From NCBI GenBank assembly GCA_963528875.1, contig CAURWT010000003.1, positions 1-32,000 on the forward strand: a stretch of 32,000 bases of DNA, read 5' to 3'. Below are positions 5,294 to 26,595 of the stretch, piece after piece. A program made the position numbers and the translations under genes. The notes under the pieces are model-generated. The model ran no database searches and was not told the origin of the DNA. It saw only the letters and a program-made list of their open reading frames with translations. Position 1 is the first letter of the stretch. Every line of letters starts with the position of its first letter. This stretch comes from an uncultured Candidatus Saccharimonas sp. Lineage in GTDB: Bacteria; Patescibacteriota; Saccharimonadia; Saccharimonadales; Saccharimonadaceae.

Positions 5294-5302
5294 TATTTTA
5301 AT

Positions 5303-7646: not shown

Positions 7647-7674
7647 TCTTATATTTGTTGAAAAAACAAAAATA

Positions 7675-7683
7675 TGGTAAAAT
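7675..7683 (+). promoter_or_regulatory. Extended -10 box TGgTAAAAT upstream of the lipid kinase gene
   Basis: TGgTAAAAT at 7675-7683; ATG at 7693, 9 nt downstream; no SD. Confidence 0.55.
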
Positions 7684-7692
7684 AATACCAAT

Positions 7693-8637: not shown

Positions 8638-8645
8638 AGGTTGAA

Positions 8646-9839: not shown

Positions 9840-9915
9840 GCGGGTTTAGCTCAGTTGTTAGAGCGCTTCCTTGCCATGGAAGAGGCCAGGAGTTAGAGTC
9901 TCCTAACCCGCACCA
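9840..9915 (+). tRNA. tRNA-Gly (anticodon GCC), CCA encoded
   Basis: 76-nt cloverleaf: acceptor gcgggtt/aacccgc, D stem gctc/gagc, anticodon stem cttcc/ggaag, loop ttGCCat, T stem aggag/ctcct. G1-C72, C2-G71, G3-C70 match Gly identity. Unusual U19/A56 and A73. Confidence 0.93.
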
Positions 9916-11007: not shown

Positions 11008-11235
11008 ATGAACGATAATCAATTAACCAACCAACAAATTAAAGAATTATTCTTTGAAATCGTTTTGAAAGAAAAAGCTTATATCAAAGATGTCGATTGC
11101 GACGGTAAAAGCTACGCTACAATCGCAGGTGATATATTCGATGAAGATTTTAATGAATATTTAGATAGTATTGGCTTTTGGGAAGAGTCACCAAGTGTTG
11201 AAGCTTGGCGAGAATATAACGAAGGAGGATTTTAA
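11008..11235 (+). CDS. Small acidic hypothetical phage protein
   Basis: 75 aa; strong SD aaggaga 6 nt upstream. Confidence 0.65.
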   Translation: MNDNQLTNQQIKELFFEIVLKEKAYIKDVDCDGKSYATIAGDIFDEDFNEYLDSIGFWEESPSVEAWREYNEGGF

Positions 11236-11236
11236 G

Positions 11237-11917
11237 ATGAATAGTTTAGTTAAATATGTAAATAATGAAGTTAGGATTGAAGAGATAAAAGATTCAGCCC
11301 GATTGAAAACTATCTTAAACAATCCTGTAAATACCAAGTGGCTTAAGACTCACCCTACAGTCAAAAACGTCAAATATCTGCCGATCGATAAAATTGAAAT
11401 TTTACTTGATATGATTTTTCAAGAATGGCGGATTGAGCTTTTGAGTGTTTCTCAGCTTGCACAAAGCGTTTGCGTAACGGTTCGGGTTCACTACAAAAAC
11501 CCAATCACTGGCGAGTGGAGTTTCCACGATGGTGTTGGCGCAAGCCCACTTCAAACTAATGCTGGAAAATCTGCTGCAGACCTTGCGAATATCAAGAATA
11601 ATGCAGTTCAATTGGCCGCACCTGCTGCTAAATCTTATGCAATTAAAGATGCAGTTGAACATCTTGGTAAAATGTTTGGTCGAGATCTTAATCGAAGTGA
11701 TACGGTCGGCTATAAATTTTTATATAAAGATGAGCAGGAGCAGCAAAAAGAAGTTAAAGATAATTCGCAAGAACTCATCGCTCAGCTTAAAGCTTCAAAA
11801 AGCCTTAAAGAACTTCAAGCTAATTTTGTAAAAGGAGTTAACCAATTCAAAGGTAATAACGAAGTAATCGCGGAATTAATTAAAATTAAGGACGAATTGA
11901 AAGGCAAATTGAAATAA
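11237..11917 (+). CDS. Single-strand annealing protein, Rad52/Sak-like
   Basis: Start moved to the ATG at 11237 (SD aaggagga; the track start 11171 overlaps the previous gene). HDGVGAS...AAKSYAIKDAVEHLGKMFGRDL resembles the Rad52-family G.G...K.A.TDA.KRA..FG core. Followed by an exonuclease. Confidence 0.7.
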   Translation: MNSLVKYVNNEVRIEEIKDSARLKTILNNPVNTKWLKTHPTVKNVKYLPIDKIEILLDMIFQEWRIELLSVSQLAQSVCVTVRVHYKNPITGEWSFHDGVGASPLQTNAGKSAADLANIKNNAVQLAAPAAKSYAIKDAVEHLGKMFGRDLNRSDTVGYKFLYKDEQEQQKEVKDNSQELIAQLKASKSLKELQANFVKGVNQFKGNNEVIAELIKIKDELKGKLK

Positions 11918-12720
11918 TGAAAATCTTAAATCTTGAACAACGATCAGATGAATGGCTACACTTCCGTGAAGGTAAAATCTCCGGAAGTAAAGCCAAGGAG
12001 TTCGGCACACCACGCACTGTTTTAAAATCTGAATGGTTAGAGCTTGCGGAAAAGTTAAAAGTTGAGATTCCTTTAAACCAAAAAGGTCAACCAAAAAACT
12101 TAACAATTCAAGAACTTAAAGACTTGATTGGTGAAGCTGAAGTTGAAAAGAAAGAGTGCGAAGTTGAACTTGGCGATGCGATTTATAAACTTATCGCTGA
12201 ACGAATTGCGAAACCAATCAACGAGAACGATTATGTAGATCGTTTAAATGGTCGCAAATATTCCGCTGCACTTCGTGGTGAAATTCTCGAAGAAGAATCC
12301 CGCGAAAAAGTCGCGCAAAAACTTCGCAAAGAAATTATCGAAGGTCGAGTATGGCAATCTGATATTAACGAAAACATTATTTGTTCACCAGATGGCGAGA
12401 TTGTAAATAAAAATGGCGAAATCACTGAAGCAGTTGAAATTAAATGTTTAGACAACTGGAAACAAGTACGAGCCTTTTATGAACAACAACCACCTAGCGA
12501 ATACAAACAGCAAATTATTCAATATTTTGCAGTTAACGAAAAACTCGAAAAGCTCTATTTTGCAATGTATTCAGACTCTTTCGCTCTTGCACCACAGCTT
12601 GAACTCTTAATTTTTGAGCTTAACCGCAAAGATTTCGAAAAAGAAATTCAGCGAGCGATTTATTTCGAACAATCTGCACTTGCGTTAGTAGAACAAGAAG
12701 TAGAAAAACTATTATTTTAA
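11917..12720 (+). CDS. YqaJ-like (lambda-Exo-type, PD-(D/E)XK) recombination exonuclease
   Basis: N-terminal QRSDEWLHFREGKISGSKA (YqaJ signature); SPDGEI...EAVEIKC D..E.K motif; translationally coupled (TAATG) to the annealase. Confidence 0.8.
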   Translation: MKILNLEQRSDEWLHFREGKISGSKAKEFGTPRTVLKSEWLELAEKLKVEIPLNQKGQPKNLTIQELKDLIGEAEVEKKECEVELGDAIYKLIAERIAKPINENDYVDRLNGRKYSAALRGEILEEESREKVAQKLRKEIIEGRVWQSDINENIICSPDGEIVNKNGEITEAVEIKCLDNWKQVRAFYEQQPPSEYKQQIIQYFAVNEKLEKLYFAMYSDSFALAPQLELLIFELNRKDFEKEIQRAIYFEQSALALVEQEVEKLLF

Positions 12721-12731
12721 GAAAGGATTTT

Positions 12732-13283
12732 ATGACTCAGGAAGAACTTAGAAACATTACAATCACACCAGAAGAAACTAGAGAAAGCGGCTATTTCGAA
12801 TTTGGTGTGCATGAAGTAAGAATTGCTAAAACCAAGATTGATAAGCATGACAATAAGCCTTACGCTGAAATCTTTGTTGAAAATGAATCAGCAGAAGATC
12901 GCGCGCGGCTTTGGTTGCACACTCCCGATACTCGCCGAATCTCAATTGATACTGTGCGGAGAATCTTAGTTCACAATCAGGAAGATGATAGCATTAAACA
13001 AAAGATTCGTGAGAAAATCCAGCAAATTAAAAACTTGGCAGATTTTGCAGCACTTCTTGAAAAAACAGTTGGCTGCACCGCTTGGTTCAAAGTTAGCGAA
13101 GATGAAGACCGAACTTATGAGAAGGACGGCAAGGTTAAAAAATCGATCAACCGCCGGATTTACGGCTATGAGCCAAAATCTGATACTCCAAAAACTCAGA
13201 CTGAAGCTAAATCTGAAACTCAAGAACCCGAAACACCTGATAACTTTGATGAACCAGTTGATTTAAGTGATATTCCTTTTTAA
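12732..13283 (+). CDS. Putative ssDNA-binding protein (non-canonical, DUF669-like) with an SSB-type acidic tip
   Basis: 183 aa; acidic C-terminal tail ending DEPVDLSDIPF, like the DDDIPF tip of SSBs; position within the recombination module. Confidence 0.6.
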   Translation: MTQEELRNITITPEETRESGYFEFGVHEVRIAKTKIDKHDNKPYAEIFVENESAEDRARLWLHTPDTRRISIDTVRRILVHNQEDDSIKQKIREKIQQIKNLADFAALLEKTVGCTAWFKVSEDEDRTYEKDGKVKKSINRRIYGYEPKSDTPKTQTEAKSETQEPETPDNFDEPVDLSDIPF

Positions 13284-13292
13284 GGAGTGGAA

Positions 13293-13700
13293 ATGATCAA
13301 GAAAGAAGAACTCTTACACCTTAAAGTTTGCGATTATCTGCGCAAGAACTACCCTGATGTGTTATTTCGCACAGATTTTAGCTCAGGTATGAAAATGAGC
13401 CCAGGCCAAGCCGCCAAGCACAAGAAATTTCAGAAAGGACGAGCTTGGCCGGATTTGTTCATTGCTGAAAGTAATAACTTCGCGAGCGGTCTATTTCTCG
13501 AAATTAAAGCTGAAAATGTTATTGTTTTTAAGAAGAATGGCGAAATTAGGCAGAATAAACATTTAATCGAGCAAGATAAAATGCTTAAAGAGCTAAGGAG
13601 TAAAGGTTATCGCGCAAGATTCGTGATTGGATATGATAAAGCAATTTTCGAAATTCAGCAATATCTTGGCGAACCAAAACCAAAGAAAGTCGAATTCTGA
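13293..13700 (+). CDS. VRR-NUC-type PD-(D/E)XK nuclease
   Basis: GRAWPDLFI...GLFLEIK...Q..ML..L...GY pattern. ATG at 13293 preferred over GTG at 13287 (SD aaggag at 13282-13287). Confidence 0.7.
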   Translation: MIKKEELLHLKVCDYLRKNYPDVLFRTDFSSGMKMSPGQAAKHKKFQKGRAWPDLFIAESNNFASGLFLEIKAENVIVFKKNGEIRQNKHLIEQDKMLKELRSKGYRARFVIGYDKAIFEIQQYLGEPKPKKVEF

Positions 13701-13762
13701 TGAGTAAAAAAGCATTGCGCAAGAAGCAACGAAGAAAGAGAAAGAAACTAATCAATGAATGA
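13700..13762 (+). CDS. Micro-ORF, 20-aa highly basic peptide (MSKKALRKKQRRKRKKLINE)
   Basis: TGATG stop/start overlap with the nuclease gene; it also overlaps the next ATG. Below the ORF-track size cut-off. Confidence 0.3.
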   Translation: MSKKALRKKQRRKRKKLINE

Positions 13763-13898
13763 TTTTACAGTTAGATGGAAAGACGAAAAAGGTGTCGAGC
13801 ACTCTAAAAACTATAAAAACATAAACGATGCAACATATGCTCGCAACTGGTTATTGAAACACGGCGCTAAACAAGTTGAAATATTTATCAATAAATAA
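13755..13898 (+). CDS. Small hypothetical phage protein (47 aa)
   Basis: Hand-translated: MNDFTVRWKDEKGVEHSKNYKNINDATYARNWLLKHGAKQVEIFINK; fills an otherwise empty gap. Confidence 0.45.
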   Translation: MNDFTVRWKDEKGVEHSKNYKNINDATYARNWLLKHGAKQVEIFINK

Positions 13899-13907
13899 AG
13901 GAGGAAT

Positions 13908-13979
13908 ATGAAAATTGAAGTTATCGATAAATCTACTAATAGACAGATGATATCAGTTGAGATAGTCCCTGCTCTATGA
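13908..13979 (+). CDS. Micro-ORF, 23 aa (MKIEVIDKSTNRQMISVEIVPAL)
   Basis: Strong SD aaggagga 4-5 nt upstream of the ATG; no homology inferable. Confidence 0.3.
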   Translation: MKIEVIDKSTNRQMISVEIVPAL

Positions 13980-14019
13980 AAGCGTTATATAGAAACTTAA
14001 ATATTAAAAGGAGAAAGAA

Positions 14020-14235
14020 ATGGCAGGGAACAGAACAGGTGGCTTAAAAACCGCCGCAAAAAATAAGGAAAAATTCGGCAAAGATTTTTACGCCCGAATC
14101 GGCAAAAAGGGTGGGCAAAACGGCAAAACTGGCGGATTTTATAATAATCCAGAGCTAGCTAGACGCGCTGGGCGAAAAGGTGGTATAACTAGTAAGCGTG
14201 GTATGGCAAGGAAGGACAGTTATGAGGCAGCCTGA
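14020..14235 (+). CDS. KGG-repeat stress-induced protein homologue (YciG/GsiB-like)
   Basis: IGKKGGQNGKTGGFYNNPELARRAGRKGG matches the KGG repeat pattern (..AG.KGGQ..GG.F..DPE.A..AG.KGG) of YciG-type proteins; SD aaaggaga. Confidence 0.75.
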   Translation: MAGNRTGGLKTAAKNKEKFGKDFYARIGKKGGQNGKTGGFYNNPELARRAGRKGGITSKRGMARKDSYEAA

Positions 14236-14431
14236 CATTAATCACCTAATTATGCAAGACTTGAAATTTAAAATGTCGGCTTGGCGAGCAATTGCGATCA
14301 TTACTCTAATACTCTTTTCGGGTGCGATTGGATTGTTTATCGGCTCAGAAGCTGAACTCAAAAGTACTAAAGCTAAGCTAAACGCCGTAGCCAATGGTTC
14401 GCAAGATTATTATTGCAAGGAGACCAAATAA
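14222..14431 (+). CDS. Small single-pass membrane protein
   Basis: Start at MRQPD (SD aaggaagga); TM segment AIAIITLILFSGAIGLFIG. Confidence 0.6.
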   Translation: MRQPDINHLIMQDLKFKMSAWRAIAIITLILFSGAIGLFIGSEAELKSTKAKLNAVANGSQDYYCKETK

Positions 14432-14694
14432 TGTTTTATGAAATTATAGAAGCTAAATATGACAGTAGTAAAAATCCAGACGAAGTAAGAACTACCGTTG
14501 GTAGATATCAGCTTTTTGAGAGAGCCACTGCTGATGCAAGAGAATTTTATAAAGAAAACAAGCCAGAAGATTATAAAACAATAGTTAGTGAAGACCTCTA
14601 TGCAAATTTCCTCCAAATAGCCGAAAAACTCGATGAAAATGGAAGAATCCAACAGTATATGGTTGAAGTTCAAGAAGTCCAATTTGATGACTAA
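14431..14694 (+). CDS. Small acidic hypothetical phage protein
   Basis: 87 aa from MFYEII; TAATG coupling to the previous ORF; SD aaggaga. Confidence 0.6.
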   Translation: MFYEIIEAKYDSSKNPDEVRTTVGRYQLFERATADAREFYKENKPEDYKTIVSEDLYANFLQIAEKLDENGRIQQYMVEVQEVQFDD

Positions 14695-14708
14695 CAAAGG
14701 AGTAAAAA

Positions 14709-15239
14709 ATGAAACAATATAAACTACTAAAAGATATGCCATTCGCAAAAGCTGGTGATATAGTGGAAATGTGGAGCGATGGGACTATGGCTTTTGCAGG
14801 CAAGCCCAATCTTCCACGATTTAATAAGGAAGATATACGAATGTTCCCACTATGGTTTGAAGAAGTTGAAGATTATTTCTATATCACCACAGATGGTTCT
14901 GTATGGTTATGTCCTAAAAATAAAGATAAGGAATTGGACAAGAACAGAAAAGCAATCGGCAACTATTTTGAAACAATCGAAGAAGCGGAAAAATACCTTG
15001 AATACCTAAAAGCTAAAACAATTATCAAACAAGATGCCAAAGGCTTTAGACCTGATTGGAATAATCATTTTGAAGATAGATACTATGCTCATTGGAATTT
15101 TGACCAAAATGAAAGCACCTGGGAGCGTGAAACCTCGTGCAAAAGTCAAGAGTTTTATTTCAAATCTCGTGAAGACCTAGAGGAAAGTTTTGAAAAACAC
15201 CCAGATGAGTGGAGAACTTATCTAACCTATGAGCAATAA
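14709..15239 (+). CDS. Hypothetical phage protein (176 aa)
   Basis: SD aaaggag 7 nt upstream; no recognisable motif. Confidence 0.65.
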   Translation: MKQYKLLKDMPFAKAGDIVEMWSDGTMAFAGKPNLPRFNKEDIRMFPLWFEEVEDYFYITTDGSVWLCPKNKDKELDKNRKAIGNYFETIEEAEKYLEYLKAKTIIKQDAKGFRPDWNNHFEDRYYAHWNFDQNESTWERETSCKSQEFYFKSREDLEESFEKHPDEWRTYLTYEQ

Positions 15240-15265
15240 AATCTCATAAAACCTTAACAATTCAA

Positions 15266-15702
15266 TTCCAGCCTTACAAGGGGCGAAAGCCCGAATGTTC
15301 TAAAATATTTACGCAAAGGGAGGATTAAACTTTTTAATCGTCCCTTGTAGGGCTGGAAACTGACTGTATTCTAGATAGGAGGAGACGCTGAGTCCCAGAA
15401 TGGGGTAAGCAATATGCCGAGCACTCTCAATGCTTTTGCCTTCCTTTCAGTTTTTCAGTCCTACGCCCTGCCATATGGCGTTAAACTGGGCGTCGCAAAA
15501 CCTAATTTTATCCGTTCGAAAAACGGTTGCTTATAAAATATAATATGTCATAAATTCATAATAGTGGCGAAAGAAATTTCGCCCCTCGAACCTGAACATA
15601 ACTAAAAAACTATAAATAATATTTAATAGAGGTAGTAAATATAGTAATAGGTTGAGCGTATTAGCGTCCGTATACGCAAAAAGTTATGTTCAGATTTGAG
15701 GG
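15266..15702 (+). ncRNA. Candidate large structured non-coding RNA, class unknown
   Basis: 534-bp gap with no + strand ORF of 60 aa or more. It contains:
- long-range helices 15266-15280/15344-15358 and 15584-15602/15683-15701;
- GAAA-tetraloop hairpins 15281-15292 and 15566-15583;
- further hairpins 15323-15339, 15512-15526 and 15656-15677.
The G-U pairs and GNRA loops only work on the + strand. Confidence 0.5.
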
Positions 15703-15773
15703 ACTAAGCAGAAACAAGCACCTTCAACACGATCATAAGCACATACCTCAATAATATTAAAGGAGAACAAAGA

Positions 15774-16001
15774 ATGGAAAATGAAGATAAATCAATAAAC
15801 ATATCAACTAACGGCGGTATAGGCTTTTTAGGAGTATTAACAATTCTGTTTATTGTTTTAAAACTAACTAATGTGATTGATTGGAGTTGGTGGTGGGTTC
15901 TCTCACCTATCTGGATACCAGTCGCAGTAGTTCTTGGAATTATTGCGATTGTAGCTATTGTGGCGTTGTTTGTAAAATTTATAGTAAACGAATTGAGGTA
16001 G
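15774..16001 (+). CDS. Small two-TM membrane protein
   Basis: 75 aa; two hydrophobic segments with a WSWWW motif between them; SD aaggaga. Confidence 0.65.
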   Translation: MENEDKSINISTNGGIGFLGVLTILFIVLKLTNVIDWSWWWVLSPIWIPVAVVLGIIAIVAIVALFVKFIVNELR

Positions 16002-16003
16002 AT

Positions 16004-16282
16004 ATGAAAAATACAGAATGGAATAAGCTTACCACAAGACCTCTTAATAATGAAGAAAAAGAGGTTTACGGAAATAGATTTGACTTTATGTGGGAAGGCA
16101 ATCAACCTGAAATAGGTGAAGAAGTTCTTGTTTATACACTTCGAAGCAAAGAAGTATATACAGATATTTGGACTGATGATTTTAATTATGGTCTCGGTTT
16201 TGAAAATACAGATGAAAAAGTCGTTTATTGGATGAGTTTCCCAGAACCACCAAGTATAGTTTCAATTCAGAAAAAAGGATAA
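16004..16282 (+). CDS. DUF551-like phage protein
   Basis: Start moved to the ATG at 16004 (SD gaggt; track start 15881 overlaps the previous gene). The ending VVYWMSFPEPP resembles the DUF551 C-terminal W.P.PepP motif. Confidence 0.55.
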   Translation: MKNTEWNKLTTRPLNNEEKEVYGNRFDFMWEGNQPEIGEEVLVYTLRSKEVYTDIWTDDFNYGLGFENTDEKVVYWMSFPEPPSIVSIQKKG

Positions 16283-16285
16283 GAA

Positions 16286-16537
16286 ATGAATAAAGCGGAA
16301 AAATGGAATTTCGAAAAACAAGAATACGAAGATTATGAATTGCCAGATAACTGTCCCCTAGTCTGCCACAATATGGAGAAAATAATAAATTGTGCAAATT
16401 GTAGAAAGAAATTCAAATTTGGAGATGGCTATTGTAGTAGAACAATTCACAATGAATATGGCTTCGGTTATCCAGTATGCGAAGAATGCTATAAAAAAGA
16501 ATTAGAAAATGAGAGGAAGTATAAAGAATATGTTTAA
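16286..16537 (+). CDS. Cys-rich zinc-ribbon-like small protein
   Basis: 83 aa with CPLVCH, CANC and CEEC pairs. Confidence 0.6.
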   Translation: MNKAEKWNFEKQEYEDYELPDNCPLVCHNMEKIINCANCRKKFKFGDGYCSRTIHNEYGFGYPVCEECYKKELENERKYKEYV

Positions 16538-16766
16538 AGATATAGATTGGTCAAAAGTATTTTTATCCTTAATGATTATGCTTTTAATAGGTTGGTTTAT
16601 TTTTCTAATTATATGGGGTATCCAAAATGAACCGCCACAACACAGTGCCGACACACTTCGAAAAATCAAAATCTGCCGAACTTATTCAAATGATTTTTGG
16701 CGGAACGATATAGATTTTATCGATGGTAAATGTTATTATAAAGGTAAAGAAGTTGAGATAAAGTAA
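16530..16766 (+). CDS. Small single-pass membrane protein
   Basis: MFKDIDWSKVFLSLMIMLLIGWFIFLIIWGI; start 16530 (SD gaggaag) preferred over 16509. Confidence 0.55.
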   Translation: MFKDIDWSKVFLSLMIMLLIGWFIFLIIWGIQNEPPQHSADTLRKIKICRTYSNDFWRNDIDFIDGKCYYKGKEVEIK

Positions 16767-16833
16767 ACCTATACTGTCGAGGGTTTTATCTTTAACTAGG
16801 GAAGAGGTGAAATAACTAGCTAAAGCTGTAATA

Positions 16834-16842
16834 TGATATAAT
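16834..16842 (+). promoter_or_regulatory. Extended -10 promoter TGaTATAAT for the 16893 gene
   Basis: tatgatataat is identical to the core of the host dnaE promoter; it sits in a 126-bp intergenic gap. Confidence 0.55.
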
Positions 16843-16892
16843 GTAAGTATGGGGGTGAGCTGTTAAATAAAAAATGAAAGGATAAGAAATTA

Positions 16893-17357
16893 ATGCCAAA
16901 ATTAACAGAAATTGCAAAACAAATCTTAGCGGTTCTATATGCTCAATATATGAAAACACCTAATATAGTATTACAACAAGTATACTTTTCAGCTCAAGAT
17001 GGTCTTGATATTGACGATGATGACAATGAAGATTTAATAGATGCTTTAAAAGATATTTCGGGTAGCGAAGCTATGTTGTCTGCTTGTTTAAAATATTTGC
17101 TCGAAAGTGGTTATATCTCTTGTCAAAGTTTTTCCGAAATGATGGATTATAGTATTCTGTTTGTTGGAATTTCTCTAACTGCTAAAGGTATTGATTACTC
17201 AGAAGGTTTAATTAGAGGCGATGCTGAAAATATCAAACAAGCCGGATTAGTTATTAACGGTGATGTTAATTTATCACCGAAACTAGAATCTCTTTTGAAA
17301 GTATCAGATTTAACTGGTTTTGGTGAACTCTTTAAAGCTTTTTCACCTAAAGAATAG
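16893..17357 (+). CDS. Hypothetical protein with its own promoter (possible winged-helix N-terminus; moron-like)
   Basis: 154 aa; SD aaagga; flanked by promoter-like elements on both sides; acidic DIDDDDNED insert. Confidence 0.6.
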   Translation: MPKLTEIAKQILAVLYAQYMKTPNIVLQQVYFSAQDGLDIDDDDNEDLIDALKDISGSEAMLSACLKYLLESGYISCQSFSEMMDYSILFVGISLTAKGIDYSEGLIRGDAENIKQAGLVINGDVNLSPKLESLLKVSDLTGFGELFKAFSPKE

Positions 17358-17378
17358 ATTTACTTTAGTCTCTATATA

Positions 17379-17387
17379 TGATATAAT
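17379..17387 (+). promoter_or_regulatory. Extended -10 promoter TGaTATAAT upstream of the terminase operon
   Basis: 17377-17391 (tatgatataatataa) is a 15-nt exact match to 86-100 upstream of host dnaE. Confidence 0.6.
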
Positions 17388-17404
17388 ATAACTAAGGGAA
17401 TAAT

Positions 17405-17452
17405 GGGCACACTATCAGTCAAAAGATTGTTTAGTGTGCTCATTTTATTTTT
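17405..17452 (+). terminator. Intrinsic-terminator-like hairpin immediately downstream of the 17379 promoter
   Basis: gggcacacta(17405-17414)/tagtgtgctc(17432-17441), 10 bp with one G-U, then attttattttt. Confidence 0.6.
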
Positions 17453-17469
17453 GGGCAGAAAGGCGAAAG

Positions 17470-17871
17470 ATGGCTAATCCTAATTTTAGTTCAAAAATAC
17501 TAATTCGTAAGCTAGAAGATGATTCAATAGTTGTTTTTTACGATAAGCATTCAATTTATATTAAGAGCCAAATGGGAATTTTAGTTTTTCATCGTTGGTT
17601 CGCTCCAAAAGGATATTACACTAAAAACTTCAAACCATTTTCTGAAATAGCTAAGCGCAAGAAACACTTAACAGTTAAATGCTTACTAGATGCTGGGTTA
17701 AAATATGGCGTAAGCTACGCTATGGGAACTAAAATACCAAAGCCAAAATCTGATAATCAAGAAATAAATTTTATTTCAGAAAAAGGAACTTGGACAAGAA
17801 GACTTACGGCGGACTATTATTCAGAAAAGGAAAAACAAGATATACTTAGAAAGATTGGTTATGGCGACTAA
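17470..17871 (+). CDS. Hypothetical phage protein, first gene of the packaging operon
   Basis: 133 aa from MANPNF (the GTG at 17434 lies inside the terminator hairpin, so it was rejected); overlaps the terS start. Confidence 0.6.
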   Translation: MANPNFSSKILIRKLEDDSIVVFYDKHSIYIKSQMGILVFHRWFAPKGYYTKNFKPFSEIAKRKKHLTVKCLLDAGLKYGVSYAMGTKIPKPKSDNQEINFISEKGTWTRRLTADYYSEKEKQDILRKIGYGD

Positions 17872-18283
17872 AAGAACAAAAGGTAAAGAGCGGATTTTTT
17901 CACCAAAGCAGATTAAATTTGGTATGTATTATTATTTGCCTGATTCTCCGACTTTTGGGAATGCGTTACAAAGTGCAATTCGTGCTGGTTTTTCTGAAAA
18001 ATACGCGAAGAATATTACGGTTAAGAATTTGGAATGGCTAGAAGATATTGTGGTGGAAATTGGTGGAAAAGGTGTTTCGAAAGATAAGCTTGTTCGTAAA
18101 GCTAAAAAAGTGCTAGATAAGAGCTTGGACAGTGAAGATGAAAAGATAGCGCAAGACACAGCTAAGTTTATTGCGAAGACTACAACAGAGTTTAGCGAAA
18201 AGCAAGATATAGTGTCGAACGGTGAAACGCTAACCGTTGCAACATTGGAGTTTGTGAATGGAGATAATCCGAAAGAAAGTTAA
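17861..18283 (+). CDS. Terminase small subunit
   Basis: FGNALQSAIRAGFSEKYAKN matches the GNateAAikAGYSektA HTH motif of Terminase_2-type small subunits; directly upstream of terL. Confidence 0.8.
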   Translation: MATKRTKGKERIFSPKQIKFGMYYYLPDSPTFGNALQSAIRAGFSEKYAKNITVKNLEWLEDIVVEIGGKGVSKDKLVRKAKKVLDKSLDSEDEKIAQDTAKFIAKTTTEFSEKQDIVSNGETLTVATLEFVNGDNPKES

Positions 18284-19523
18284 AGTTCCGATTGAATTTA
18301 AGCCACTGTTCGAAGAAAATAAATGGCGAAACCTTGTTTTTTATGGTGGGCGTTCGAGCGGAAAAAGCCACGACGTCGCACTCTCTCAGGTTTTAAGAGC
18401 GAGAGAAAAGAGATTGAAATTTTTAAACTGTCGAGAATTTCAGAACTCAATTAAAGACTCAACACACGCTTTAGTGAAAGCTATTATTTTTGAATACGGT
18501 TTTGAAACTGAATTTATAATTACTAATGATTCTATAAAACATAAAAGAACTGAAAGCGAATGGATTTTTAAAGGTTTGCATGACAACGTCGAAAGCTTGA
18601 AGTCTATACCGAATATTGATGAAGCTTGGGTTGAAGAGGCGAGCACCGTTACCAAGCGCTCTATTACGCTACTAAAAAACACTGTGCGTAAAGATAATTC
18701 GAGGCTTATTTTTACTTTTAACCGTGATACGGAACGTGATCCAGTCTATGTTGAATATGTGATGAAGAAGCCAGATAATACTTATGCAATTAAAGTAAAT
18801 TATGATGTGCTAGAAAAGAACGGGCTTTTCCCAGATGTGATGCGAATTGAGATGGAGAATGACAAGAAAAACAACCCTCAAGAGTTCGCTCATACTTGGT
18901 TAGGTGAGCCACTTTCGCAAATTGAAAATGCTATTTTGAGCCGTGATAGAGTGCTAAACGCTATGGATCGAGAGATAGAAGATGACGGCGAAATTCAAAT
19001 AGGCGTTGATGTGGCACGACTTGGTGATGACCGCTCTGTATTATGGAAGCGTAAAGGCTTAAAGACAATTGACTTTAAGGTTTACGAAAAACTCAGGACT
19101 AATGAGCTTGTGGAGAAAATAGAGCAGTTCGCCCAATTAGATAAGGAAGTGTTAATTAAAATCGATGACACGGGAGTTGGTGGTGGTGTTACTGATCAAT
19201 TATTAGCTAAAAATTACAATGTTCAAGGTATTAACTTTGCACAGAAAGCGGTGAATGATGACAAATACCCGAATTGGATCAGCGAAGCTTGGTTTCATCT
19301 TCAAAAAGTGATAGATGAAATACAACTGCCAAACAACACGGACTTGCTCCAAGAATTGACAACTAGAACTTGGAGTATGGATAAAAAAGGTAAGCGAGCG
19401 GTTGAAAGCAAGGGAGATTACAAGAAGCGGGGAAATAGAAGTCCTGACTTGGCTGATGCGTGCATCCTTTGTTATTATACGCCGCCAAAACCTAAACCTA
19501 TTGTTTATGCTGGCGTGAGATAA
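18258..19523 (+). CDS. Terminase large subunit (PBSX/Terminase_3-like)
   Basis: 421 aa; Walker A YGGRSSGKSH, Walker B-like IDEAWVEEAS, C-terminal RNase-H-like nuclease with IGVDVAR and DDTGVGGG. Confidence 0.92.
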   Translation: MEIIRKKVKVPIEFKPLFEENKWRNLVFYGGRSSGKSHDVALSQVLRAREKRLKFLNCREFQNSIKDSTHALVKAIIFEYGFETEFIITNDSIKHKRTESEWIFKGLHDNVESLKSIPNIDEAWVEEASTVTKRSITLLKNTVRKDNSRLIFTFNRDTERDPVYVEYVMKKPDNTYAIKVNYDVLEKNGLFPDVMRIEMENDKKNNPQEFAHTWLGEPLSQIENAILSRDRVLNAMDREIEDDGEIQIGVDVARLGDDRSVLWKRKGLKTIDFKVYEKLRTNELVEKIEQFAQLDKEVLIKIDDTGVGGGVTDQLLAKNYNVQGINFAQKAVNDDKYPNWISEAWFHLQKVIDEIQLPNNTDLLQELTTRTWSMDKKGKRAVESKGDYKKRGNRSPDLADACILCYYTPPKPKPIVYAGVR

Positions 19524-19532
19524 TGTAGCTCT

Positions 19533-19544
19533 GCTCGACTATTT
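19533..19544 (+). promoter_or_regulatory. Late-unit motif GCTCGACTATTT, copy 1 (upstream of portal)
   Basis: Exact 12-mer shared with 22226-22237 and 26537-26548; followed by the AT-rich -10-like TATATT (19550-19555), 6 nt before the ATG. Confidence 0.6.
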
Positions 19545-19561
19545 GAATTTATATTTTAAAT

Positions 19562-22099
19562 ATGTTTAGAGATTTTTTTAGCCGTTTGGTCGGCGGTAAT
19601 ATGAAAAAGAAGAGCGCCTCGCACTACGCTTTCAATCGGCCAAAATCAATGTTGGGTGCGCATACATTTTATAAAGGATTATCATATGATAATTCATATC
19701 CGTCTATTTCACGAATTGTAAATGAATTTATGACAATTAGGCCGTATGCGATAGATAATAACGGTAAAACAATTCAAGATTCGGTAGTGATGAATAAAAT
19801 ATATCATCCGAATCAACAGATGAGCGGTGCAACCTTCCGTGAAGCTTTAGCACTCCTAAGTTTGGTTTTTCCTAAAGTTTATGTTTTGGTTTGGAGCTAT
19901 AATGAACAGGGCGCTCCAACAACTGGACAAAATATTACTCCTGAAAATATAGCAGGGTTTACTATTCTTGAGGGAGTAACTGAATATTATGTTGGTGAAG
20001 AGAAGCGCTATCGAGTTGGTGCTAAAGAATACTCTGAAAATGAAATTATTGAACTGCGAAGTGGGGTTAATCCATATGATTTGAGCGGAGGATATAGCCC
20101 GACTGATGCTGCTCGAAAATGGGCATCGATTGATGATTATATCGCAAGTTATCAAGCTGGTTATTTTGAAAACGGCGCTGTGCCTGCTGGACAGTTTATT
20201 ATTACCGCTGGAAGTGTTGAAGAATATAATAATATTGTTGATGATCTGCAAGCACGACACCGTGGTAGTGGCAATAATAACAATGTGGTTTATGTTCATC
20301 GCCCAATTGAGAGTGCAACAGGTAAGCCAGTTAATGCTCAGATTGAGTGGGTACCATTTGCTGAGAGTAACAAGAATCTTGACTTAAAGAGTCTATTTGA
20401 CCAAGCTAACAAGAAAATTGACAGTATTTACGGCGTCCCTGCAAGTGTTCGAGGTGTGAATGATAATAACACTTATGCCAGTGTGCGAGTGGATGAGCAG
20501 ATTTTTATTAAATATACGATCAGGCCTTTTGCAACACGGATTTGGAGTGAATTTACACATCAACTGAACCGAATTACAGGCGGCTTAGGTTTTGCTATCA
20601 CTTTTGACCTTGATATTCCTGGTGTGGCCGAAGAAGAAAAGATTGAAGCTGAGCGTAAAGCAGCTGAATTAACTTTGATTAAGACTGGCTTAGAAATGGG
20701 CTATTCATTAGACAGTATAGTTGATGCATTTGAGCTCTCGAATGGCTATAAAACGCTTAAAATGGGTGAAACTCCACTAAAAATTGAGAATGATAAGCCT
20801 GAAGTTGATGACGGCGGCGAAGTTGAAGAATCGCCAGAAGATTTAAACGCAAAAAGCGCGCATATCTGTAATGAGTGCGGAGAACACCACTGTTTAAAAG
20901 CTGATAGGAAAACAAAAAACGAAAAGCAAAAAGATAAAGACCAGAATGCACTAGAAACTGTCTTTCGTGATATGACTAATGAGCAGATTGAGCGAGCTAT
21001 CGAGAGTGATTTTGAAGATTTTGACCTTGGCGATAAAGATCGTGAAAAATTCAAGCAAAGAATAAAGGTGATATTGCTGAGCGTGCTGGTAACCCGTGGT
21101 GTGGTGGCTTGGAGTGATTTTGTTTCAATATTAAAGCAAAACAACATATCGACTGATGACCTAACCGAATTTAAGCTTTCTGATAAGCTGAAAAAACATT
21201 ATGACAAAATGATAGCTGATTTTACTAAGAGTTTTAGTGAAGATACGGCCAAGTCGATTGCTAACAGAGTTGCTCAAGCAGAAATAGAAGACTGGAATAA
21301 GGAACAGTTAGCTCGTAGCTTGCGAGATATAACAAAAACCGAAGAATGGCGAATTCAGCGAATAGCTCGCACTGAAACACACCGAGCACACGGCCTGGCT
21401 GGCGTGGAGGCTGGTGTGCAAATTCAGAATGAATCTGGCGTGCAGATTTATAAAGAGTGGGTGGTCGTTTCGCACAATCCTTGCAAATATTGCCGTGGAA
21501 TGAACGGCAGACGAGTTAATGTAACTGAAAGTTATGTTAAAAAGGGTGGAATTTTGATTGGCAAATCGAAAATCCGAGTTAATGATTATGCTGATATCGA
21601 CACGGCTGGTGCTCACCCAAACTGTTCTTGTGTGGAGAAGTTTGGGATTGAAGAAAATAATAGTGAACCTTGGCGGAGCGTTGAAATTGAAGAGTTGCCA
21701 GCTGAGAAATTTAATGAGGTTTATGGTAAGGATTGGAAAGGCTTTAGTTTTGAAACTGAGCCACCATTAAACCAAAGAGAAAAAGAGATTGCACAAATCT
21801 TTTCAGCGCAAACAAAAAAGACACCTTTAGCGATTAGGCGAGTTGAAAAGCCGGATGGTATAAAAACTCCAGACTTATTAGTCGATGATAAGAAATTTGA
21901 GATTAAGAAAGTATCGAGCCCACGTTCGGTAGAAGATCAATTAAGGAAGGCACGTAAACAAGGAGCTTTTGGCGTAATTCTTGATATAGATGATGAAAAA
22001 TATAATTTTGAAGTTTTAGCTGCAGAGATAAAGAGAAGGCAAAAGCAGTTTAAGATTGAAGAAATATATAAGATATTGAATAACGAGATTATAGACTAA
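19562..22099 (+). CDS. Portal protein fused to a MuF/SPP1-gp7 head-morphogenesis domain and a C-terminal PD-(D/E)XK-like (putative nuclease/toxin) domain
   Basis: 845 aa.
- Residues 1 to ~430 are Phage_portal-like (FENGAVPAG, GVPASV, TIRPF).
- Residues ~560-691 are MuF-like (RIARTETHRAHG ... CKYCRGMNG ... AHPNCSCV).
- Residues ~700-845 carry TPDLLVDDKKFEIKK (PD-x8-ExK).
The start is uncertain (19562 has no SD; alternative is 19601). Confidence 0.85.
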   Translation: MFRDFFSRLVGGNMKKKSASHYAFNRPKSMLGAHTFYKGLSYDNSYPSISRIVNEFMTIRPYAIDNNGKTIQDSVVMNKIYHPNQQMSGATFREALALLSLVFPKVYVLVWSYNEQGAPTTGQNITPENIAGFTILEGVTEYYVGEEKRYRVGAKEYSENEIIELRSGVNPYDLSGGYSPTDAARKWASIDDYIASYQAGYFENGAVPAGQFIITAGSVEEYNNIVDDLQARHRGSGNNNNVVYVHRPIESATGKPVNAQIEWVPFAESNKNLDLKSLFDQANKKIDSIYGVPASVRGVNDNNTYASVRVDEQIFIKYTIRPFATRIWSEFTHQLNRITGGLGFAITFDLDIPGVAEEEKIEAERKAAELTLIKTGLEMGYSLDSIVDAFELSNGYKTLKMGETPLKIENDKPEVDDGGEVEESPEDLNAKSAHICNECGEHHCLKADRKTKNEKQKDKDQNALETVFRDMTNEQIERAIESDFEDFDLGDKDREKFKQRIKVILLSVLVTRGVVAWSDFVSILKQNNISTDDLTEFKLSDKLKKHYDKMIADFTKSFSEDTAKSIANRVAQAEIEDWNKEQLARSLRDITKTEEWRIQRIARTETHRAHGLAGVEAGVQIQNESGVQIYKEWVVVSHNPCKYCRGMNGRRVNVTESYVKKGGILIGKSKIRVNDYADIDTAGAHPNCSCVEKFGIEENNSEPWRSVEIEELPAEKFNEVYGKDWKGFSFETEPPLNQREKEIAQIFSAQTKKTPLAIRRVEKPDGIKTPDLLVDDKKFEIKKVSSPRSVEDQLRKARKQGAFGVILDIDDEKYNFEVLAAEIKRRQKQFKIEEIYKILNNEIID

Positions 22100-22156
22100 A
22101 AATAGACCAGCTCGCCGAGTCCTATGCAGGACACGACCGCTGGTCTATTTATTTTT
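22100..22156 (+). terminator. Strong intrinsic terminator after the portal fusion gene
   Basis: aaatagaccagc(22100-22111)/gctggtctattt(22139-22150) with an inner gtcct/aggac stem, followed by atttttg. Confidence 0.75.
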
Positions 22157-22225
22157 GTAAGCCTTACTATTTAAATATTATCATATTTAAGTAAAAAAGT
22201 CAATATTATCTAATTATTTTGTATA

Positions 22226-22237
22226 GCTCGACTATTT
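22226..22237 (+). promoter_or_regulatory. Late-unit motif GCTCGACTATTT, copy 2 (upstream of the protease-capsid gene)
   Basis: Exact 12-mer preceded by tGTAta; TAATATTAATT follows 5 nt downstream. Confidence 0.6.
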
Positions 22238-22279
22238 GCTAGTAATATTAATTTGTAATAGTAAATTTAAAGAGGAAAT

Positions 22280-23989
22280 ATGGCAGAAAAAGTTAAGAAA
22301 ACAGCACTGGAGCTGAAAACTGAAATTTCGAAGTCCGTGGGAGAAAATGAGGAGCGAAAAATTAGGTTTGTGGCATCGAGTGTAAACGAAGATCGCCATT
22401 ACGAGAAAGTGGACGTTGCGAGCCTTCGCCTACCTTTAAAGCAAGGTGGTGAGATCCGAGCTGGAGCAATTCCGACGGAAGGAGTGAATGATTTAGTGGA
22501 TATTCCACTAATTCTAAACCATTCTGGTGATGTTCGGGACACAATTGGCTCAGTGCGAAGTGCTTTCTATGAAAATGGTGAGCTGATTTTTGAAGCGGGT
22601 ATCTCAAAACGGGAAATAGCACAAGAAATGCTGCTACTTCTTGAAGAAGGACACCTATCAAATGCGTTCTCAATTACAATGTCAGATTTTGACTATAATT
22701 TTGAAAGCGAAACGATTAGTAACGCTGAGATTATTGAGGTGAGCTTGGTTTTCCGCGGAGCTAACAGAGAAGCAAGGCTTTTGGCCGTAAAATCTCTGAA
22801 AGGTGATGAAATGAGCCAAGAAAAAGAAACTCCAGAAGTTTTGAAAAAAGAGGCGACAACTACAGTTTATCCTGAGGTTGTAGCAGACGATGAACCTGAG
22901 GTTGAGCAGGCTGAAAATTCAACCGAAAATAATAATTATAACGAAGAGAAAGAGGAAGAAATGGATAAAGAAATTGCAAAAGATGCTATTTCAAAAGCAG
23001 CACCAAGCCAAGCTGTGAAGTCTTCAAGTAATTACCTTGAAACTCGTGAGGCGATGAATGACTATGCGAAAATTCTTGAGAAATTTGCTGGTGCTAACGC
23101 TAACGAAGTGAAGAAAGCTTGGGCTGATCATGTAGCACAAAAAGGTATTAGTAATGTTGATGTTCTACTACCAGGAGCAATGGTTTCAGCAATTAGCGAT
23201 GGAATCGAGAAATCTGGAACAATTTGGAACATTCTAAATAAGACTGGATTAACTGTTCGCCGAATTGATGCCGAAACAGCTGATGCTCGAGCACAAGGAC
23301 ATAAACGTGACACAACTAAAAAAGAAGCAACATTAACATTTACTGATCGTGTGATTCGTGCTGGTTTCATCTATGATTATCTAAAATTGAACAAAGAAGA
23401 TATTGTAGAAAACCGTGATACTGGTGCTTTGGTGAAATTCGTGCTTGAAACTTTGCCAAAACGAATTATTACTGAAATTGAACGAGCAGTAGTGATTGGT
23501 GATGGTCGAAGTGGTGAAGATGACAAAATCAATAGCTTTGTTTCAATCCTAGAAGATGCTAAGAATGGAGTTTTTGCCACTGAATATACACCCGCTAAAG
23601 ATGAGTCACTTTACAAGTCAATTGTTAAAGCAGCTACAAAAATTGTTCCAGAAGGTGATGTATATATTGTTATGAGCAAATCTGCGAAAGCTGAGCTAAA
23701 ACTTTCTGAAACTAAGAGCGGTGCGCTTGTGTTCCCACTTGGTGGTGATATTGCTGGAACTTTGGAAGTTAAAGAAATCTTTACTCCAAGCTGGTTTGCA
23801 CCAGAAGGCGTTCAGGCTGTAATGTTTGTAGGTGATGCTTACGAAACAGTTGGTGATAATTCAATTGAAGCTTACACAAACTTCTCACTAAGCCAGAATA
23901 AACAAGAGTATCTACAAGAAATTTACGCTGGTGGTGCTTTGGCGAAAGTTAAAGCTGGTGTAGTAATTAAAAATCCTGCTTCGGCTTAA
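22280..23989 (+). CDS. Prohead protease (HK97/S78-like) fused via an acidic linker to an HK97-fold major capsid protein
   Basis: 569 aa. N-terminus: FVASSVNEDRHYEKV, ILNHSGD..IGSV, LSNAFSI (protease His/Ser contexts). Residues ~180-240 are an acidic low-complexity linker. C-terminal ~300 aa are capsid-like (ERAVVIGDGRSG). Confidence 0.8.
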   Translation: MAEKVKKTALELKTEISKSVGENEERKIRFVASSVNEDRHYEKVDVASLRLPLKQGGEIRAGAIPTEGVNDLVDIPLILNHSGDVRDTIGSVRSAFYENGELIFEAGISKREIAQEMLLLLEEGHLSNAFSITMSDFDYNFESETISNAEIIEVSLVFRGANREARLLAVKSLKGDEMSQEKETPEVLKKEATTTVYPEVVADDEPEVEQAENSTENNNYNEEKEEEMDKEIAKDAISKAAPSQAVKSSSNYLETREAMNDYAKILEKFAGANANEVKKAWADHVAQKGISNVDVLLPGAMVSAISDGIEKSGTIWNILNKTGLTVRRIDAETADARAQGHKRDTTKKEATLTFTDRVIRAGFIYDYLKLNKEDIVENRDTGALVKFVLETLPKRIITEIERAVVIGDGRSGEDDKINSFVSILEDAKNGVFATEYTPAKDESLYKSIVKAATKIVPEGDVYIVMSKSAKAELKLSETKSGALVFPLGGDIAGTLEVKEIFTPSWFAPEGVQAVMFVGDAYETVGDNSIEAYTNFSLSQNKQEYLQEIYAGGALAKVKAGVVIKNPASA

Positions 23990-25974: not shown

Positions 25975-25987
25975 GAAAATAGATATG

Positions 25988-26019
25988 AAAAACGCCCCTA
26001 TTCATTGGGGGCGTTTTTT
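25988..26019. terminator. Bidirectional intrinsic terminator between the tail tube gene and the antisense moron
   Basis: aaaaacgcccc(25988-25998)/ggggcgttttt(26008-26018), 9-nt loop; A-run and T-run on either side. Confidence 0.8.
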
Positions 26020-26035
26020 GATATTGAAAAATAGT

Positions 26036-26473
26036 TTAGTTGGCGTATTTTTTATGTAGTTTCAAGCAAGCATTAATTCGATTCTTAGCGCTGGTAGCGG
26101 CCATCAGTAAACCATCGTAAGTGTAAGCATTTGAGCCCATTTTACCACCTTTAGTGTATTCACCCCTTAATACTAGGGTTCCTTTTGTGGTGTAAAGCAT
26201 ATTTTCGAAAATATATTTAGTCTTTTTACCCGCAGAATCTTTAATTTGGCGATAATCGAAGCCTTTAATCTCGTCCCAAGAAAAAGTTTGCACAGTTTCA
26301 TATTTAAAAGCTGAACCATATGAAAATTGAAGCTCTACGCCACCATTATAAGTAATTTTGAGGCGAGCTTTAGCGACTATTTCTTCTATTCCTTCGAAGT
26401 CGCCGTCGTAGTTGCCTAAAACATACTGGCGCATATTTAGACTTTTAATTCTTAGTTTATCTATAAAATTCAT
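26036..26473 (-). CDS. Antisense moron: 145-aa beta-rich protein of unknown function
   Basis: The only minus-strand gene in the prophage. Own RBS (gaaagg) and an AT-rich promoter region at 26474-26530; own terminator. No recognisable motif. Confidence 0.7.
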   Translation of the reverse strand: MNFIDKLRIKSLNMRQYVLGNYDGDFEGIEEIVAKARLKITYNGGVELQFSYGSAFKYETVQTFSWDEIKGFDYRQIKDSAGKKTKYIFENMLYTTKGTLVLRGEYTKGGKMGSNAYTYDGLLMAATSAKNRINACLKLHKKYAN

Positions 26474-26536
26474 AATATAAATACCTTTCTTATATTTAGA
26501 TTTTATATCTTTTAACGCCTAAAATCAACTGTATTA

Positions 26537-26548
26537 GCTCGACTATTT
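26537..26548 (+). promoter_or_regulatory. Late-unit motif GCTCGACTATTT, copy 3 (upstream of the tail operon)
   Basis: Exact 12-mer preceded by tGTAtta; TAATATTATTT follows 5 nt downstream. Confidence 0.6.
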
Positions 26549-26595
26549 AGAATTAATATTATTTCATAAGATTAAAATGCTGAATGGAGGATTAT

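Follow-up and report, generated by a model that had tools for sequence, protein, structure and literature searches.

Genes and domains at the locus

Here, we describe a gene in a stretch of 32,000 nucleotides (nt) from an uncultured Candidatus Saccharimonas sp. (contig CAURWT010000003.1 of assembly GCA_963528875.1), referred to below as the window, whose product joins a phage portal protein, a MuF-type head domain and a predicted nuclease in a single chain. It is the portal gene of a temperate, siphovirus-like prophage of Saccharibacteria (TM7) of about 27 kb, and it has the position of such a gene, beside the large terminase gene and ahead of the capsid genes. The gene and its parts, with the predicted local distance difference test (pLDDT) as the confidence of the structure model, are as follows.

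19562 to 22099, + strand: portal-MuF-nuclease fusion gene, stop codon included; one uninterrupted open reading frame (ORF) of 845 amino acids (aa)
19736 to 20614, + strand: portal domain PF04860, residues 59-351, in a folded module of about residues 50-400; Pfam E=2.1e-28
20771 to 20908, + strand: linker 1, residues 404-449, predicted to be disordered; pLDDT <50
20909 to 21649, + strand: MuF / SPP1-gp7-type head domain, folded module of about residues 450-696; pLDDT ~90
21659 to 22096, + strand: predicted C-terminal nuclease module, residues 700-845, with the core PD-(D/E)XK fold from about residue 733; Pfam CdiA_C

The full-length AlphaFold (AF2) model, with 54 homologues, comprises three folded modules and two low-confidence linkers. 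The match of the portal domain to PF04860 reaches 99.9 bits against a cut-off of 39.1 and covers profile positions 19-288 of 321, while the match of the same region to the NCBIfam model portal_HK97 (E=8e-11) is below the cut-off of that model. In the MuF module, Phage_Mu_F (PF04233) is found at residues 565-691 (E=8.8e-9, 36.5 bits against a gathering score of 29.6, profile positions 2-110 of 112), and the match to NCBIfam phageSPP1_gp7 (E=2e-6) again stays below the cut-off, with 28.1 against 39.65. Two cysteine motifs are present in this module, C-x2-C at 641-644 and H-P-x-C-x-C at 685-690, and C641, C644, H685, P686 and C690 are invariant in the alignment of 54 sequences.

Linker 1 carries the motif I408-x-N-D-K-P-x-V-D-x-G-x-E-V...P425 (nt 20783-20836), which is invariant in all 54 aligned homologues, down to 41% identity. 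The same predicted disordered linker contains the Cys/His cluster HICNECGEHHC (residues 434-444, nt 20861-20893), of which the last cysteine, C444, is alone near-invariant in that alignment. Linker 2, residues 700-732, is likewise of low confidence in the model and leads into the nuclease module at about residues 733-845.

A single and recurrent fusion

The original prediction had read the gene as a single polypeptide of 845 aa, and an uninterrupted ORF indeed occupies exactly 19562-22099 on the + strand. The motifs quoted for it are all in place, namely FENGAVPAG at 202-210, GVPASV at 291-296, TIRPF at 319-323, HICNECGEHHC at the residues given above, RIARTETHRAHG at 600-611 and AHPNCSCV at 684-691. 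The worry that a frameshift or an assembly error might lie at the domain junctions has been settled for an intact ORF by independent assemblies: the identical fusion protein is present on other contigs, and at least 12 loci of metagenome-assembled genomes (MAGs), as well as IMG/VR contigs, encode an intact orthologue (82-98% identity), these sequences coming from differing samples, studies and assemblers. At the portal/MuF junction no in-frame internal start codon has a ribosome-binding site, and a single polypeptide is therefore predicted. A locus search with a tighter tail alignment returned three viral loci only.

Portal and MuF proteins had been said to be normally encoded by separate genes. 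The one-ORF fusion stands for the gene in the window, but the rarity implied by that statement does not, since the fusion is common: 814 relatives were found, and both Pfam domains are present in 104 of the 120 best. In addition, residues 69-697 align to profile positions 98-710 of 717 of the portal protein family PHROG 2662 (E=1.8e-43). The profile stops where the nuclease tail starts, and the tail is consequently an add-on in a minority of the members of that family. Most relatives have 700-730 aa and end just past the MuF motif HPNC-x-C, with no nuclease, while about one fifth have 830-900 aa and bear a tail. Comparison of the gene architectures of related prophages thus gave a recurrent portal-MuF fusion with an optional and variable tail. 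At least five types of tail (A, the type of the window, A', B, C and D) can be distinguished behind bodies that are 82-95% identical, and all of them belong to one nuclease superfamily.

The C-terminal nuclease domain

The tail had been proposed to be a nuclease of the restriction-endonuclease fold, with a PD-x8-E-x-K arrangement. The quoted segment, TPDLLVDDKKFEIKK, was found at 769-783 with the spacing D771-x8-E780-x-K782, and a family match, a fold model and a conserved acidic/Lys signature all bear the proposal out. When the last 146 aa are scanned alone, CdiA_C (PF18451) is matched at 768-836 with 31.6 bits, above the gathering score of 26.6; in the scan of the whole protein the match has 26.4 bits, just under it. 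CdiA_C is a family common to the toxins of contact-dependent inhibition (CDI), and 41 of 45 tail relatives match it (best E=3.9e-21).

The PD-(D/E)XK signature, that is, E on helix 1, D on strand 2 and (D/E)-x-K on strand 3, is present. The predicted catalytic residues are E740 (nt 21779-21781), D771 (21872-21874), E780 (21899-21901) and K782 (21905-21907). In the alignment of 45 tails K782 is invariant, E740 and D771 are kept in at least 90% and the position of E780 is mostly E or D; the acidic/Lys signature is retained. A conserved pair, K799-Q800, is located on the helix after the predicted catalytic strand. The AF2 model of the nuclease tail (pLDDT 95.3) contains the helices H39-52 and H88-100 and the strands E62-64, E73-75, E78-85 and E105-110.

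Word-indexed searches with the tail alone or with its profile gave 2 and 18 proteins, respectively, and an exhaustive search of 1.8 billion representatives with the tail gave 38 relatives. With iterated local profiles, all tail types of the portal fusions were joined in one superfamily, in which the subgroup of the window and a sister subgroup match each other with an hhalign probability of 99.3% (E=1e-20). The profile of the sister subgroup reached PDB 4G6V chain A, the CdiA-CT of Burkholderia pseudomallei 1026b, at E=9e-4, and the profile of the whole family reached it at E=0.09. In the alignment D214 and D223 of 1026b correspond to D771 and E780, and K242 falls on the helix that bears K797-K799 here. 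CdiA-CT of 1026b is a Mg2+-dependent tRNase of the PD-(D/E)XK fold with the active site E187/D214/D223/K242 (PMC9086364). A search of the single tail sequence against the PDB sequences gave no meaningful match, and an NCBIfam scan of the tail and of candidate neighbour genes gave nothing informative. Among predicted viral proteins, structural matches of the tail model (probability 1.0, TM-score 0.56-0.74) carry the labels 'minor capsid protein', 'capsid maturation protease and MuF-like fusion protein', 'CDI toxin-like protein' and, for a protein of 883 aa, 'portal protein'.

Judged from sequence conservation, then, the tail is a predicted PD-(D/E)XK nuclease domain of the CdiA_C type with conserved active-site residues. 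Its substrate is most likely tRNA or another RNA, since the homologous CdiA-CT domains of 1026b and E479 are tRNases and since a nuclease of double-stranded DNA would endanger the phage genome packaged with it.

The close subfamily of the tail is met only in MuF or portal proteins, or standing alone. In MuF-only proteins of other phages the domain may be N-terminal, internal or present in 2-3 copies, beside zincin-like (HEYGHG) and other modules; the MuF-only proteins with several copies (P0122-P0128) have up to 1,091 aa. The domain also forms a separate gene of 187 aa, two genes past a Mu-type portal gene (865 aa). A standalone version of 165 aa is a conserved chromosomal gene that adjoins the prolyl-tRNA synthetase gene in other small genomes and is followed by an ORF of 121 aa. 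The standalone and the Mu-portal-linked nuclease genes were read from the loci L035-L038 and L039-L041 (L numbers denote related loci throughout).

An exchangeable cassette with its own hairpin

Block maps were drawn by BLASTN between the window and relatives with the A' tail (L005, L012, L014, L016) or the B tail (L013, L015). They delimit one cassette, in which a hairpin is nested.

21656 to 22193, + strand: exchangeable tail cassette
22100 to 22157, + strand: terminator-like hairpin (22100-22150) and U-rich tail (22151-22157), within the cassette

Against the A' type the homology extends up to 21798, and against the B type up to 21655, just past HPNCSCVEKFGIEE; in both comparisons it is back at 22194. 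According to these breakpoints the cassette consists of the tail codons plus about 95 bp that include the hairpin, and of nothing else. The alignments thus indicate that the nuclease tail is optional and is swapped among close phages by recombination in the conserved flanks.

A strong terminator had been predicted directly after the gene, and a stable hairpin followed by a U-run does lie there. Its free energy (dG) is -25.8 kcal/mol (z=-4.87), and none of 200 shuffled sequences was as stable; a simple terminator scanner missed it because its loop is longer than the limit of the scanner. Every tail type has its own nested hairpin of -22 to -26 kcal/mol, with a weak one only in type C, while tail-less relatives have none (-7 to -10 kcal/mol). 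The hairpins are located at 22100-22157 in the window and, for example, at 7420-7480 in L005, 7700-7760 in L006, 12610-12670 in L008 and 10500-10560 in L015; in each of them the outer stem, of 9-15 bp, encloses an inner stem-loop of 5-6 bp. A compensatory change from C-G to G-C separates the inner stems of types A and A' (GUCCU/AGGAC and GUGCU/AGCAC), and an AUSC tetraloop is common to these and type D; the B-type hairpins have the common core CCCG-AACCAAUUC-CGGG. As a known RNA the hairpin can be set aside, since Rfam gave no match and the inner motif recurs in the same phage lineage only. Its possible roles are those of a terminator, of an RNA stabiliser or of a landmark for recombination.

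Search for an immunity gene

The gene had been noted to have no adjacent immunity gene, and this holds: the gap of 180 nt contains no ORF of at least 40 aa, and the next gene is the capsid fusion gene at 22280. Likewise, a space of 160-190 nt free of any plausible ORF separates the fusion gene from the capsid gene in 12 of 15 tail-bearing loci. Nor does any gene co-vary with the tail type across the prophage of about 27 kb, as judged from pairwise block maps and from co-occurrence among related loci. For example, the left 10 kb of the window (A) and of L012 (A') are 95% identical with no replaced block, and the small genes beside the integrase at the right end are common to A' (L043) and B (L046), with 85-95% identity. 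An approach based on gene families restricted to one tail type was set aside, since it is confounded by phylogeny, and the pairwise block maps were used instead.

Two ORFs had been suggested earlier as immunity candidates, and neither suggestion survives the comparison.

26036 to 26473, - strand: 145-aa 'moron' ORF; no family match
16893 to 17357, + strand: 154-aa ORF of the early region; matches only PHROGs with no known function

The distribution of the 145-aa ORF is independent of tail type: it is 96% identical in L014 and L016, both A', and absent from L012, which is also A', and from the B elements; a homologue of 33% identity is found in the tail-less L003. The 154-aa ORF does not follow the tail type either, being missing from the A-type L001 and L002 and present in L012 (A', 100%) and L015 (B, 86%).

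Other genes that might have served were rejected on similar grounds. One was the pair of an antitoxin-type Panacea (SocA) gene and its 146-aa partner: L015 has it after a B tail and L021 has a 99% identical copy after an A tail, and the remaining B-type loci lack it. Another was an insert between the large terminase and portal genes, with a 228-aa gene on the minus strand; it is found alongside tails of types A, A' and B and is lacking in other elements.

Some of these genes mark variable sites of the lineage. The region between hairpin and capsid gene (22158-22279 in the window) is a hot spot for moron inserts in relatives, which include the Panacea pair (L015 10497-12389, L021 9315-11512), a gene for an NYN-domain ribonuclease-like protein (L042 1-833) and one for a G5-domain protein (L007 8454-9233); all three are morons that are independent of the tail. 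The insert ahead of the portal gene, of about 690 bp and with a minus-strand gene of 226-228 aa (L015 7254-7940, L005 4139-4819, L010 1182-1875, L013 7347-7987), has its site at 19523/19534 of the window, where it is absent. A second moron slot, between the tail-tube and tail chaperone genes (25975-26583), holds the 145-aa minus-strand ORF in the window, and elsewhere a Fic protein (L006 11755-12894), an HNH endonuclease (L043 4120-5118) or, in L005 (11258-13073) and L044, a pair of a 321-aa protein and a DUF4325 protein plus a 171-aa minus-strand ORF. A further variable accessory site lies immediately ahead of the small terminase gene; in it the closest A-type relative has a 400-aa SLFN_AlbA_2 (Schlafen/AlbA-like) gene (L001 6604-7806, for 16767-17344 of the window) in place of the 154-aa ORF.

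The prophage around the gene

The remaining features that place the gene in its prophage are as follows.

105 to 9791: host housekeeping genes, encoding DnaE, enolase, DAG kinase and an M20 peptidase
9840 to 9915, + strand: tRNA-Gly(GCC), the left prophage boundary, found with ARAGORN; host genes to the left, phage early genes to the right
18258 to 19523, + strand: large terminase subunit gene, directly upstream of the fusion gene; Pfam Terminase_3 E=4.8e-33
22280 to 23989, + strand: prohead protease / major capsid protein fusion, directly downstream; Pfam L_lactis_ph-MCP E=1e-12, residues 323-556

The order on the + strand is early genes (Rad52-like, YqaJ), small terminase, large terminase, fusion gene, head genes and tail genes. 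The right end was read from relatives, where an Amidase_5 endolysin and a few small genes are followed by the integrase and then by host genes, and the length of about 27 kb follows from this. All relatives from the genome collections are MAGs of Candidatus Saccharimonas or Saccharibacteria, and BLASTN against 50,697 deposited phage genomes gave no DNA-level relative of the head module; 120 integrated Saccharibacteria prophages were known earlier (PMC10746230).

The integrase is at the far right end of the prophage, while the left end adjoins tRNA-Gly(GCC). In L047 the integrase runs directly into the early genes, which fits a circular or free phage genome, and two types of integrase, of 306 and 288 aa, occur in the lineage with differing host flanks (L042-L047). 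L021 is a decayed prophage copy in one MAG, at the same host site, in which about 9.6 kb (the equivalent of 11217-20819 of the window) have been swapped for 1.5 kb (6531-8037), so that of the fusion gene just the 3' part, with MuF and nuclease, is left.

The gene at 22280-23989 is a second head-gene fusion of the same small phage, with an HK97-type prohead protease at the N-terminus, an acidic linker and the major capsid protein. The N-terminal part has a weak match to Pfam Peptidase_S78 at residues 71-174 and to NCBIfam proheadase_HK97 at E=1e-3. Its linker (residues 185-208, nt 22832-22903) contains three 'PEV' motifs within 25 residues. The 'PEV' motif of the portal and capsid linkers was tried as a protease site and is kept in close relatives; the capsid-linker motif is absent from L006 and L008. 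The motif of linker 1 and the 'PEV' of the capsid linker might be a shared maturation-protease or assembly signal.

Interpretation

Then, what could a nuclease at the portal be for? We favour the reading that it is an effector anchored to the portal inside the virion, of the injected-effector or polyvalent-protein kind and not one half of a toxin-immunity pair, and we give this reading about an even chance. On this account the fusion protein would be made from the late operon only, in a cell near lysis, and the producer would need no immunity protein because expression is late and the cell is about to lyse. The MuF-nuclease extension would be packaged within the head at the portal vertex, since the portal has its C-terminus on the inner side of the capsid, where gp7 of SPP1, which binds portal and DNA (PMC10083569), attaches to the portal. 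At infection the MuF-nuclease part would exit alongside the DNA, perhaps once linker 1 has been cleaved, and the nuclease would cut nucleic acid, most likely tRNA, of the newly entered cell. The polymorphism of the tails would stem from an arms race, whose other side could be host targets, inhibitors of the host or competing phages. While packaging, release and injection are steps that we infer, MuF has been proposed as a capsid-targeting carrier of injected effectors, including portal+MuF+effector fusions (Iyer et al., 2017, PMC5512222).

Several points weigh against this reading. A domain bound to the portal needs proteolysis or unfolding to leave the capsid, and no cleavage site is established; nor does the junction have an internal start with a ribosome-binding site. 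The tRNase substrate is taken from a distant homology (4G6V at E=9e-4 through the sister subgroup and at E=0.09 for the whole family), and a Foldseek search of the tail model against PDB gave no significant match. In types C and D a gene does follow the portal gene, encoding the G5-domain protein (L007) and a zinc-ribbon-like protein of 63 aa (L008), respectively, and the latter, the sole such exception gene, might be a cognate partner. The MuF toxins studied by experiment, Apk2 and Bxa, harm the cell that makes them and are encoded next to immunity genes (PMC10083569, PMC11699363), which leaves room for an unlinked or host-encoded protector here.

Such a protector is the core of the alternative that survives best, although we consider it unlikely. 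As a classical MuF polymorphic toxin, the nuclease would be delivered by virions of the lysogen into non-lysogenic relatives, while the lysogens would be protected by a cognate immunity protein whose gene is unlinked and lies at another place in the host chromosome or in prophage sequence outside the comparison. The polymorphic C-terminus behind the conserved demarcation HPNCSCVEKFGIEE and the membership in a family common to CDI toxins are consistent with this, as are the listing of MuF with cd13442 (1026b CdiA-CT) among the MuF toxins (PMC5576092) and the neutralisation of the toxic Apk2 and Bxa by immunity proteins (PMC10083569, PMC11699363). However, 12 of the 15 tail-bearing loci have no downstream immunity ORF, nothing across the element co-varies with the tail type, and the downstream inserts that do occur are tail-independent, with the Panacea pair 99% identical behind B (L015) and A (L021) and the NYN gene in the same slot (L042). 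The 2-3 copies of the domain in some homologues also fit poorly with one toxin and one immunity protein.

Somewhat less probable again is a role of the nuclease without injection, inside the producing cell or on nucleic acids of the phage itself, for example the late degradation of host tRNA, RNA or DNA, or the processing of DNA ends at the portal while the genome is packaged or ejected. The gene does belong to the late packaging operon, with the terminase and capsid genes on either side, the nuclease is covalently tethered to the portal, which is the route of all DNA, SPP1 gp7 binds DNA at the portal (PMC10083569), and a doomed cell makes immunity unnecessary. Yet most close relatives are tail-less, L003 being otherwise syntenic, and the tail is therefore dispensable for packaging; the rapid swapping of at least five tail types points to conflict and not to housekeeping, and the homologous solved enzymes are tRNA-acting toxins (PMC9086364).

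It is improbable that the tail is a catalytically dead decoration of the portal/MuF complex, structural or nucleic-acid-binding. Fold-level searches against solved structures were not significant, and an inactive effector domain is noted in the classical Mu F protein (PMC5512222); but among 45 diverse homologues the E-x-K lysine never varies, at least 90% retain the helix Glu and the PD Asp, and the fourth position holds E or D, and the gathering score of Pfam CdiA_C is passed. Purifying selection that falls on precisely the catalytic positions speaks in favour of an active enzyme. Finally, an assembly or annotation artefact, such as a missed stop or frameshift among separate portal, MuF and toxin genes, can be dismissed, because the same unbroken ORF recurs in many independent assemblies, a curated PHROG family covers portal plus MuF and the junction has no internal start bearing a ribosome-binding site, while no support was found for it, the truncated gene of L021 belonging to a visibly deleted prophage remnant.

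The covalent portal-MuF-nuclease fusion is natural 'Rosetta-stone' evidence for a place of such effectors at the portal inside the capsid. The close prophages, which differ almost solely in the nuclease cassette, with no immunity-like gene swapped along, also amount to a natural experiment, and such a swap favours an infection-stage effector over interbacterial antagonism, which needs self-protection. From this, a wider proposal can be drawn, which seems to us possible but doubtful: that the portal is a carrier of exchangeable, immunity-free nuclease 'warheads', each a minimal cassette with its own 3' hairpin, and that the MuF 'toxins' here are infection-stage effectors. The lack of an immunity partner across at least five cassette types would then mark them as effectors against the newly entered cell and not as weapons between strains. 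MuF-borne effectors could shut off translation or defences, or hit resident competitors, and this would answer what MuF toxins serve; the role of phage toxins fused to MuF is unresolved according to the papers on Apk2 and Bxa (PMC10083569, PMC11699363). In addition, a conflict module would be added to the little-known biology of the phages of Saccharibacteria, ultrasmall epibionts that abound in the human oral and gut microbiome and are hard to culture.

Comparison with known systems

All components of the gene, as well as the combinations MuF + CdiA-CT and portal + MuF + effector, have been described before. MuF fused to the CdiA-CT domain of 1026b (cd13442) is listed among the MuF toxins (PMC5576092), effector domains fused to 'MuF and portal domains' are given as the simplest polyvalent-protein architectures (PMC5512222), and similar proteins are present in public viral protein sets, some of them labelled 'CDI toxin-like'. 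What is added here is the triple fusion in Saccharibacteria prophages, the minimal cassette of tail plus hairpin and the lack of a co-varying immunity gene.

The original prediction had invoked the MuF proteins with variable C-terminal toxin domains as a described family, and the gene does resemble the MuF polymorphic toxins (Jamet et al., 2017, PMC5576092) in several respects. A MuF head domain is followed by a variable toxin-type C-terminus in both; nuclease tails are the commonest in that family, with cd13442 CdiA-CT(1026b) named; the tail domain here, CdiA_C, is also a C-terminal domain of CDI toxins; and the C-terminus varies (A, A', B, C, D or none) with sharp breakpoints behind 82-95% identical bodies. 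However, MuF is fused to the portal here and not encoded downstream of it, the small downstream immunity ORF that accompanies 89% of the described cases and all tested ones is missing, the tail variants form one nuclease superfamily and not many toxin classes, and the host is a bacterium of the candidate phyla radiation (CPR), the Saccharibacteria.

With the polyvalent proteins (Iyer et al., 2017, PMC5512222) the gene has in common an effector fused to MuF and/or portal and a late-gene context; such proteins are expected to travel inside the head and to enter the cell together with the DNA, with no need of an immunity partner. Relatives of the tail occur, moreover, in multi-domain MuF proteins with zincin-like and other modules. 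In contrast, the protein of the window has a single effector domain, and is therefore of the 'simplest architecture' and not a true multi-effector polyvalent protein. In the passages of PMC5512222 considered here, the fusions of portal and MuF bear PBECR or 2H domains and not the nuclease of the window.

Compared with the CDI toxins, the tail has a predicted PD-(D/E)XK core with an acidic/acidic/acidic-or-Lys active site, like CdiA-CT 1026b (4G6V) and E479 (5J4A), which are Mg2+-dependent tRNases (PMC9086364), and E187/D214/D223/K242 of 1026b correspond to E740/D771/E780 and K782/K799. The sequences are distant, however, and the canonical beta-strand lysine (E-x-K) is kept here, whereas the lysine of 1026b is on the following helix. 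Unlike in CDI systems, no CdiA filamentous haemagglutinin region, CdiB or CdiI is found in the protein or in neighbour genes, and delivery would be virion-borne and not by type V secretion.

Finally, the arrangement is close to that of gp6 (portal) and gp7 (MuF) of SPP1, in which a MuF-type minor head protein also sits at the portal inside the capsid, and the fusion can be regarded as a covalent 'Rosetta-stone' version of this pair. SPP1 has two genes, and its gp7 is present in few copies and carries no enzymatic tail. The obligatory fusion of the window, in contrast, would place up to 12 copies of the nuclease at the portal unless the protein is processed, as judged from the stoichiometry of the portal alone.

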